A program made the position numbers and the translations under genes. The notes below the pieces were generated by a model, which was not told where the DNA came from, searched no databases, and was given only the letters and a program-made list of their open reading frames with translations. DNA of 50,777 nucleotides, from the NCBI GenBank assembly GCA_943357245.1, contig CALRGH010000002.1:1-50777 (forward strand), written 5' to 3'. Positions 22,950-24,497 of the stretch are shown piece after piece. The stretch comes from Candidatus Nomurabacteria bacterium. Lineage in GTDB: Bacteria > Patescibacteriota > Minisyncoccia > Phycocordibacterales > UBA9973. The first letter of the stretch is position 1; each line of letters begins with the position of its first letter.

Positions 22950-24008
22950 TTATAGTAATCCTGCTTTTTTCTTGATTTTATACGTGCTTCCATGACCAAG
23001 TAGCCCTTTGTATGAAATACGAGTCGGCTCACTCAAAGATTCCTCTAATCTTGCAACCATACGCCACTTGGTCGATGTCCTTAGTGTGCGATGTGTTGGA
23101 AAATGCACCCAGCCGAGAAAATCTACACCAGACGCATGAGTTTTGATAAATACTTTATTCGGATGCATTGTCAATTTTAATTTTTCTGCAAGAAAAACCT
23201 CTAATTTCGGCAACAATAATTCCAAATACTTTTTATCATCACTCAAAAAGACAAAATCATCTGCATAACGAATACAATATTTCGCTTTGAGATCCCGCTT
23301 CATAAACTGATCAAATTCATGCATATAAATATTTACTAATAATTGCGATGTAAGATTCCCTAACGGCAACCCAACAGGAAAACTATCAATTATTTGATCT
23401 AAAAGCCAAAGAGTGTCTTTATCATAAATATGTTTTGCAAGAATTGTTTTTAAAATACCATGGTCAATGTTCGCAAAAAATTTCCTAATGTCACACTTGA
23501 GCACCCAGCACGTCCTCGTATTATTTTTTGACACCTTGCGTGCAAAATAGCGAAACCTGTCTATTGCCCGATGTGTACCTTTACCTATACGACATGAATA
23601 CGAGTCATAAATAAACTTGCTATCAAAATATGCATATAGATTTCGATAGAGCGCATGATGCAACAACCTATCTCCCACACTAGCTTTGTGAATATCGCGC
23701 GGTTTTGGATCATTGAGCTTAAATGCCACATACCCGCCATGCGTATACGTTTTTTCTTTCAGATTTTTATGAAGCGCAATGATGCTATCCGAAAAATGTA
23801 ATGCAAACAATTCAACATCTTTCCTTTTTTGTTTACCACGCAAAAATTCCTGCCACGAGATAAGTAAGTTTTCGACGGATATGATATTCTTGTACTCATG
23901 GCGCAAGACTCCTCTCTCTCTCTCTCTCTCTCTCTCTCTCTCGGTAGCGCAACCATAATTACGCGCATCAAAGAGGGATATTTGCTGTGGATGAATATTG
24001 TTTCTCAT
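22950..24008 (-). CDS. DGR reverse transcriptase
   Basis: 352 aa; YADDFVF catalytic box; GLPLGNLTSQ (LGxxxSQ, the DGR-RT signature). Start is either ATG 24008 or the in-frame TTG at 23906 just 3' of the (GA)n tract. Confidence 0.9.
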   Translation of the reverse strand: MRNNIHPQQISLFDARNYGCATERERERERERGVLRHEYKNIISVENLLISWQEFLRGKQKRKDVELFALHFSDSIIALHKNLKEKTYTHGGYVAFKLNDPKPRDIHKASVGDRLLHHALYRNLYAYFDSKFIYDSYSCRIGKGTHRAIDRFRYFARKVSKNNTRTCWVLKCDIRKFFANIDHGILKTILAKHIYDKDTLWLLDQIIDSFPVGLPLGNLTSQLLVNIYMHEFDQFMKRDLKAKYCIRYADDFVFLSDDKKYLELLLPKLEVFLAEKLKLTMHPNKVFIKTHASGVDFLGWVHFPTHRTLRTSTKWRMVARLEESLSEPTRISYKGLLGHGSTYKIKKKAGLL

Positions 24009-24308
24009 ATGCCTAAAGGTAATCGCTACACCATCGGGGTGCGCATTGAAAATAAATTACTCGACCTTGCAGAGCTTGCCTATGTCACCTATTTTACTGA
24101 AAAAGACAAGAAACTCCAGAAAATTTGCGACTGCATACTGCTTTTGGACACGCTCAAATTCCTCATACATATAACCTGGGAAGCAAAACTGATTTCTCAT
24201 AAACAGTACGAAATCATTGCTGAAAAATTAGAAGAAATAGGAAAAATGTTCGGCGGATGGAAACGGAATCTTGAGCAAAATCCGGAAAAGAAAAACCGCA
24301 CCTTATAG
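23898..24308 (+). CDS. avd: DGR accessory variability determinant (Avd, four-helix-bundle family)
   Basis: 136 aa; ...YLLWMNIVSHMPKGNRYTIGVRIE...EIGKMFGGWKRN typical of Avd / 23S rRNA-IVS four-helix-bundle proteins. Opposite strand to RT and TR; overlaps the long RT ORF by 111 bp. Confidence 0.8.
   Translation: MAQDSSLSLSLSLSLGSATIITRIKEGYLLWMNIVSHMPKGNRYTIGVRIENKLLDLAELAYVTYFTEKDKKLQKICDCILLLDTLKFLIHITWEAKLISHKQYEIIAEKLEEIGKMFGGWKRNLEQNPEKKNRTL
23912..23942. repeat. (CT)15C dinucleotide microsatellite
   Basis: 31-nt uninterrupted tract. It encodes (SL)n in avd and (ER)5 in the long RT reading frame. Confidence 0.95.
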
Positions 24309-24366
24309 TGCATAGAAAAACCCCGCTGAAATCTAGGATTTCTAACAGGGAAAAAGAAATGAGTTT

Positions 24367-24497
24367 CGGGTACGGAAAACAAACTTGTTATTCGAATTCC
24401 ACCTGTTCGTAGGCTTCGCCGTATTCGCGTTCAGTTCGAGCTGGTCGCCATTATCGTTACAGTTGAACACGTTCGGATTGCCATCACGGTCAGTTTT
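24367..24497 (-). repeat. DGR template repeat (TR)
   Basis: 131 bp homologous to 24815-24945, rich in AAC/AAT codons in gene sense. Every position that differs from VR is A in TR. Confidence 0.88.

Follow-up and report, generated by a model that had tools for sequence, protein, structure and literature searches.

The DNA analysed here, referred to below as the window, is a stretch of 50,777 nucleotides (contig CALRGH010000002.1 of assembly GCA_943357245.1) from a Candidatus Nomurabacteria bacterium, with a G+C content of 41%. It carries a diversity-generating retroelement (DGR) in which the accessory gene avd and the reverse transcriptase (RT) gene overlap head-to-head, and in which a simple sequence repeat (SSR) of variable length lies inside that overlap. 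DGRs are the most powerful natural targeted-mutagenesis systems known and are especially common in Candidate Phyla Radiation (CPR) bacteria.

Except for avd, all components of the element lie on the minus strand. The 134-nt template repeat (TR, 24364–24497) is situated 448 nt downstream of the variable repeat (VR, 24812–24945), and when the two are aligned at this offset they differ at 24 positions, every one of which is an adenine in TR (24 of its 44 adenines). VR forms the 3' end of the target gene (24802–26724), a 640 amino acid open reading frame (ORF) with VR at its C-terminus; VR ends 10 nt ahead of the stop codon, and the product has no match in Pfam. The RT ORF (22950–24008) specifies 352 amino acids when read from the ATG at 24008, and its conserved body begins at approximately 23888 (YKNIISVENLL). 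In a profile search it matches RVT_1 (E=6e-22), and its translation contains the DGR-type motifs LGNLTSQ and YADD, the combination of GxxxSQ (motif 4) and YxDD being diagnostic of reverse transcriptases of the DGR clade. An adenine-specific TR/VR pair, an RVT_1 domain with both motifs and a VR at the 3' end of a target gene are thus all present.

The only component on the plus strand is avd (23898–24308), the product of which has 136 amino acids. This protein falls into Pfam family bAvd (PF22296) with a score of 54 bits (gathering cutoff 40; E=2.7e-14) and has 372 homologues, those with a source name being annotated as four-helix-bundle proteins of Patescibacteria. Its AlphaFold2 model (pLDDT 83.6) possesses helices at residues 20–35, 40–66, 69–95 and 101–127, with residues 1–16, including a stretch of (SL)n, modelled as disordered. 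While a sequence-only search of the PDB with the Avd profile returned nothing, a fold search using Foldseek gave the Avd protein of a Bordetella phage (4DWL, 4DWL_D) as the best PDB match, with a probability of 1.00, a target-normalised TM score of 0.90 and a root-mean-square deviation of 1.5 Å. A hidden Markov model built from the family was run against all frames of the window and found no Avd-like ORF besides 23898–24308. The plus-strand ORF is a true Avd, as the initial annotation of the window had proposed.

That annotation had set avd antisense to the TR–RT interval, with an overlap at the 5' end of RT. The coordinates confirm this: each element lies where it was claimed to lie, and two in-frame RT starts are present, ATG 24008 (111-nt overlap with avd) and TTG 23906 (9-nt overlap). 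It had also set the inverted avd against the canonical co-linear DGR, but novelty of the orientation is not supported. Related loci were fetched (83), and the orientation of RT was scored in 82, namely 81 relatives and the window, two further loci ending before RT; in every one of these, RT faces avd head-to-head from the opposite strand, an arrangement not due to chance. The same order has been published as architecture B3, written "TR-(avd)-RT" with the parentheses denoting the reverse strand, and makes up 90% of the DGRs of CPR bacteria (Wu et al., Nucleic Acids Res 2018, PMC5758913). The inverted avd is hence an already published trait that is typical of these elements, and the locus is a B3-type DGR of a Patescibacteria (CPR) genome. 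The orientation of the target gene varies around the fixed TR-(avd)-RT core, and is inverted in one of the relatives (L001).

Public gene calls shorten avd, the call for the window itself (P0001) being a 99 amino acid protein that starts at Met38, and give RT variable N-termini (296–351 amino acids) depending on the state of the repeat and on the overlap. These mis-started calls are a systematic annotation artefact in this DGR clade, and many calls of avd and RT in CPR genomes are truncated or mis-started owing to the tract. In one related contig of 2.3 kb (L092) there are two identical copies of avd in inverted orientation, 378–701(+) and 1598–1921(-), which could stem from an inverted duplication or from an artefact of assembly at the TR/VR repeat.

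The avd/RT overlap and its repeat

The coding overlap (23898–24008, both strands) comprises 111 nt in codon-aligned antisense register, the first 37 codons of avd lying opposite the first 37 codons of RT. Each of the two ATG start codons stands opposite a CAT codon (His) of the partner gene, of which it is the reverse complement. The avd ATG is antisense to an RT-frame CAT in 70 of 70 loci, and the RT ATG at 24008 is the reverse complement of the codon for Avd His37, a residue that is invariant and specified by CAT in all 70; the other His codons of avd are divided between CAT (23) and CAC (32). Codon-level selection is also visible between the repeat and His37. There, none of the 316 Leu and Ser codons is TTA, CTA or TCA, which would be stop codons in the codon-aligned antisense frame; the remainder of avd, by comparison, has 252 of them among 1157 Leu and Ser codons (Fisher p=9e-30, a value which overstates independence since the loci are related). 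Within this segment the remaining synonymous codons for Leu and Ser are exchanged freely. In all 70 loci the codon-aligned antisense frame is free of stops, which the two remaining antisense frames contain in 69/70 and 41/70. Synonymous entropy is low at avd codons 18–39 and zero at K25, E26 and H37.

Judged by these codon patterns, the overlap codes on both strands, and the leftward ORF from 24008 has been kept open by selection. ATG 24008 is accordingly the start that we would assign to RT, and TTG 23906 may also serve. The strict conservation of this far ATG, together with the maintenance of an open antisense frame, indicates translation across the repeat tract. The 111-nt overlap is a statistically clean example of two functional bacterial genes placed head-to-head in antisense register.

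A candidate extended -10 element for avd, TGATATTCT (23882–23890, plus strand), lies within RT codons, 7 nt ahead of the avd ATG. Among 72 distinct sequences the consensus is TGATAT(c/t)AT at a constant spacing of 7 nt from the ATG, and the RT Ile codon inside the motif is ATC in 70 of them. As a hypothesis, TGATATTCT may be a promoter giving rise to a leaderless or near-leaderless avd mRNA. Within avd itself a small dip in synonymous variation was observed at codons 65–69 (24090–24104), with ratios of about 0.35 at Tyr65 and Phe66; the antisense strand reads GTAAAATA at this place, which could be the -10 element of an RT promoter inside avd. Some antisense interaction of the RT and avd mRNAs at their 5' ends is still expected, since each start codon sits within the other gene.

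The SSR, identified by TRF, is (CT)15.5 at 23912–23942, inside a pyrimidine tract that extends over 23909–23942. It begins 14 nt past the avd ATG and is read as (SL)n in Avd and as (ER)n in RT; the homologues keep an N-terminal SLSLSL motif. Among the 82 loci the repeat found at this position is (CT)n in 63, poly-C in 13 and mixed in three, with three loci having none, so that its position is fixed in 79 of 82. Its length ranges from 8 to 48 nt.

The length of the repeat sets the frame of both genes. In only 22 of 70 loci does the avd ATG share the frame of the Avd body (frame classes 0, 1 and 2 containing 22, 22 and 26 loci, respectively), and in precisely these 22 the far RT ATG shares that of the RT body, the frame being open in all of them; the states of the two genes are thus perfectly linked. 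In the window both are in frame, a state referred to here as ON, and in the three loci lacking a repeat both genes are likewise in frame. The out-of-frame (OFF) loci share no other canonical start upstream of Avd helix 1 (residues 20–35), some of them offering only a TTG two codons ahead of the RIKEGY motif. Because their RT and avd bodies are intact, they are not decaying pseudogenes.

Length polymorphism is also seen between close relatives. In contigs with identical flanks from different samples the tract is C8, C10, C12 or C13, and C12 alone yields both full ORFs; a C9 allele corresponds to the full-length protein P0094. A second identical-flank set has CT tracts of 21, 25 or 27 nt. Clusters of Avd proteins at 90% identity mix full-length members (129–139 amino acids) with more numerous truncated calls of 107 or 115 amino acids, which start at internal TTG or CTG codons. 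An SSR in the 5' coding region, variation of its length among close relatives and shifts of frame with intact gene bodies are the features of contingency loci, and the pattern carries, at the level of sequence, the hallmarks of an SSR-driven phase-variable locus.

The TR RNA

Upstream of TR, on the same strand, a promoter-like site is present at 24725–24754 (TAGATA-18-TATAAT, with the -10 element at 24730–24725), the -10 element being kept in relatives as TGnTATACT. Strongly conserved non-coding sequence starts right after it and forms a putative structured leader of about 200 nt with four helices (24498–24718, minus strand). An alignment of 61 loci (MAFFT and RNAalifold) gave 30 base pairs, 24 of which show compensatory changes. 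Two of the leader hairpins have UACG loops in most loci; in the window these loops are UAAGG and UAGAG. Rfam contains no family for the leader, the hairpins described below or the overlap. In CPR elements the leader, lying 5' of TR, may act as the scaffold on which the DGR RNA binds protein.

Downstream of TR the order on the TR strand is, in nearly all relatives, a U-rich linker, a GC-rich hairpin and an invariant U5CU4. The hairpin of the family has a stem of 7–9 bp, in which pair positions 3–7 each occur as several Watson-Crick pair types; loop lengths vary, and a count anchored on the stem showed many compensatory changes. Where relatives have one such module of hairpin and U-tract, the window has two in tandem. 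Following TR and its U-rich linker, the upstream module (24314–24350, minus strand) consists of a hairpin at 24350→24321 and a U-tract at 24320→24314. A 101-nt fold of this region has an energy of -25.9 kcal/mol (z=-2.8), and its position is that of the conserved hairpin in the relatives; it looks like a terminator or an Avd-binding stem-loop, and the module itself looks like a lineage-specific duplication or insertion. In the second module (24286–24312, minus strand) the hairpin occupies 24312→24297 and is followed by U5CU4 at 24295→24286, which was also a match in a terminator scan. This hairpin spans the avd stop codon, its antisense encoding the end of Avd (...EKKNRTL*). The conserved module at the avd stop has only a weak 5-bp stem in the window. 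A GC-rich stem-loop followed by a U-tract on the transcribed strand, which is the sequence signature of an intrinsic terminator, is thus found immediately after TR.

A duplex between the A-rich leader and the U-rich linker, as an analogue of the "cPRT Stop", was considered and rejected. The predicted energy was -8.1 kcal/mol, compared with -5.4 for a shuffled linker, but the leader paired with its own linker (-8.05) no better than with those of other loci (-8.16), and covariation lent it no support.

The initial annotation had supposed that this DNA bears dual coding and structural constraints. This holds in part. Constraint is strong at the 5' overlap and at the last five or so codons of avd, where the EKKNR tail is the antisense of the U-tract and of the 3' arm of the hairpin, and the codons have zero or near-zero synonymous entropy. 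It does not hold for codons 40–128, in which, apart from the small dip noted above, synonymous variation is near-neutral.

The TR RNA would then carry its own promoter, a leader of about 200 nt, TR, the U-rich linker and a hairpin with a U-tract. Its length would be about 430 nt, and it would end at or just inside the 3' end of avd rather than run antisense through the gene. Such a self-contained RNA is, from the conserved signals on either side of TR, the most economical reading. With a leader 5' of TR and a terminator after it, the RNA mechanism in most CPR elements may be laid out differently from that of the Bordetella phage.

A proposed switch and its alternatives

Three expression units are proposed: the TR RNA; avd, whose translation would run rightward from ATG 23898, probably from a leaderless mRNA; and RT, which would be read leftward from ATG 24008. 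Both coding frames would cross the hypermutable (CT)n or poly-C tract inside the overlap. Slippage by any number of nucleotides that is not a multiple of three would take both genes, avd and the long RT ORF, out of frame at once, and only one length class in three would yield full-length Avd and N-extended RT. Because both frames cross the tract and one length class in three is in frame, we propose that it is a heritable, reversible and stochastic joint ON/OFF switch for avd and RT, in a B3-type DGR whose TR RNA is made separately. We give this reading a probability of roughly 0.55. Switching within a lineage and loss of the proteins in OFF alleles would follow from it, and the transcript ends would lie where the signals around TR suggest.

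Several points weigh against the proposal. Two thirds of the consensus alleles are OFF, which could mean that the tract is not a real gate and that non-canonical initiation, transcriptional slippage or frameshifting is used instead. A canonical RT start that is in frame is found between the repeat and the RT body in about 29 of 73 loci (TTG 23906 in the window), and in these RT could be made at any repeat length; frame-1 loci, moreover, often have another in-frame TTG beyond the repeat. The gating of RT may thus be looser than that of Avd. The phylogenetic relatedness of the loci affects all of the p-values, which overstate independence. The hairpin and U-tract after TR could, in turn, be an Avd-binding stem-loop, a terminator or both.

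Part of this evidence can be turned into a different account, which we regard as unlikely but deserving of attention. Here the repeat would be a nucleic-acid element: (GA)n or Gn as a ribosome binding site or leader for the proximal RT start, a tract forming H-DNA, or a spacer between divergent promoters, with Avd and RT made at all lengths through non-canonical initiation, transcriptional slippage or frameshifting. An RT start does closely follow the tract in many loci (GAGAGG-AAA-ATG; in the window GGAGTC-TTG at 23906), both repeat variants leave the RT-sense strand purine-rich, and the bodies remain intact although two thirds of the alleles are nominally OFF. Such an element, however, leaves unaccounted for the strict conservation of the far RT ATG, the antisense frame that is kept open and the in-frame state of all three repeat-less loci. 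The spacing from the tract to the proximal RT start is irregular, and past the tract no start is conserved for Avd helix 1. That the differences in length are sequencing or assembly artefacts, the true state being always in frame, is very improbable. Low-complexity tracts are error-prone, and Logan contigs do break at the 31-nt tract of the window, but identical out-of-frame lengths turn up repeatedly in assemblies made independently from different samples (C10 in five, C8 in three and a CT tract of 25 nt in five), the differences are whole units amounting to as much as several repeats, and the 22/22/26 spread over 70 metagenome-assembled genomes from many studies would require errors in most of them.

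The remaining alternative concerns the TR RNA and was the one favoured by the initial annotation: a TR transcript would read through avd in antisense into RT, the segment of approximately 360–460 nt between TR and RT would be the spacer used for priming, and TR RNA and avd mRNA would regulate each other by full-length pairing. The geometry permits this, the essential spacer of the Bordetella phage DGR does sit between TR and brt, and RT needs some promoter. Both parts of the idea nevertheless fare poorly here. A transcript wholly antisense to avd is at odds with the covarying, GC-rich hairpin and U5CU4 which directly follow TR on its own strand, and of which the window has two tandem modules. 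A priming spacer between TR and RT has the same hairpin and U-tract against it, as well as the structured RNA conserved on the other side of TR; and because avd codons 40–128 are near-neutral synonymously, there is no conserved antisense-strand sequence or structure in that part of the segment. We consider read-through doubtful, distinctly more so than the nucleic-acid element.

For the joint switch at the repeat, a wider and more tentative statement can be made from the comparison of loci. Across a large clade of CPR DGRs, a single hypermutable repeat within an avd/RT overlap translated in both directions might act as a heritable, stochastic master switch, hypermutation being on in a minority of cells, with an RNA scaffold for protein binding and priming 5' of TR and a terminator just 3' of it; we hold the odds of this to be somewhat short of even. 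If the switch is real, a repeat that gates both enzymes would be a simple form of DGR control, one that could explain why many intact DGRs seem inactive in a given sample, and a mutable switch would here control a mutator. The searchable literature yielded no paper connecting DGRs with SSRs, with phase variation or contingency loci, or with slippage, with the proviso that an earlier mention is possible in the main CPR-DGR paper (Paul et al. 2017, Nat Microbiol 2:17045). Relative to that literature, and Paul et al. 2017 aside, the bidirectional coding under selection and the repeat that sets the frame of both DGR enzymes look new.

Surroundings of the element and comparison with known systems

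The regions considered around the DGR were 19918–22868 and 47616–50777. A 137 amino acid ORF at 19918–20331 (plus strand) appears, by eye and from its translation, to be HIT-family-like, and the adjacent minus-strand ORFs 21008–22120 and 22122–22868 resemble, by the same means, phosphoglycerate kinase and triose-phosphate isomerase. Also present in the surroundings are four tRNA genes (Gly, Pro, Gly and Arg). Since its neighbours are housekeeping and tRNA genes, the DGR is read as chromosomal, and these surroundings suggest that it is not obviously phage-borne.

A 21-nt palindrome, GTGTGAGGC-NNN-GCCTCACAC, occurs in three copies (22926–22946, 26706–26726 and 27411–27431), with none expected by chance. 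The first two bracket the DGR cassette exactly, from just past the RT stop codon to the start of the target gene; the second and third flank an ORF for an IS200-like Y1 transposase (26731–27468, minus strand; Y1_Tnp E=2.6e-10). This layout suggests an association of the kind known for REP (repetitive extragenic palindromic) sequences and their RAYT transposases, or for IS200/IS605 insertion sequences, and a possibly mobile cassette. As the palindrome was found in none of 100 related loci, it is not part of the anatomy of this DGR family.

With the B3 DGRs of CPR bacteria (PMC5758913) the element shares the order and orientation of TR, the reverse-strand avd and RT, as well as its Patescibacteria hosts. 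The parts of that paper searched deal with gene order only and make no mention of the avd/RT overlap, the repeat, the hairpin in the 3' end of avd or the leader.

In the DGR of Bordetella phage BPP-1 the order is mtd-VR, avd, TR and brt, all collinear, and the elements for priming and RT binding reside in a 140-nt spacer that separates TR from brt (Handa et al., PMC6182149; bioRxiv 10.1101/2023.10.23.563531). Among 278 DGRs that contain Avd, 207 have a predicted Avd-binding stem-loop just downstream of TR (Handa et al., bioRxiv 10.1101/2023.10.23.563531). The two elements are alike in the adenine-specific differences between TR and VR, an RT with GxxxSQ and YxDD, a four-helix-bundle Avd and a stem-loop after TR. 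They differ in that here avd is inverted between TR and RT, a U-tract follows approximately 50–80 nt after TR, and the conserved structured RNA lies upstream of TR.

The closest parallels for the repeat are SSR contingency loci, such as the CT tracts in the 5' coding regions of outer-membrane protein genes of Helicobacter pylori and the poly-G/C tracts of Campylobacter and Neisseria (PMC2715451, PMC4965091, PMC5084427). In those loci, as in this one, the repeat lies just past the start codon, tracts of different length occur in sequences that are otherwise identical, a single length class out of three keeps the frame, and the bodies of OFF alleles are intact. The hosts here, in contrast, are uncultivated CPR bacteria, and switching is suggested by comparison of sequences across contigs rather than within a clone. 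The genes concerned are not surface or modification genes but the enzymes of targeted hypermutation, and a single tract, read on both strands, would gate two oppositely oriented and overlapping genes.

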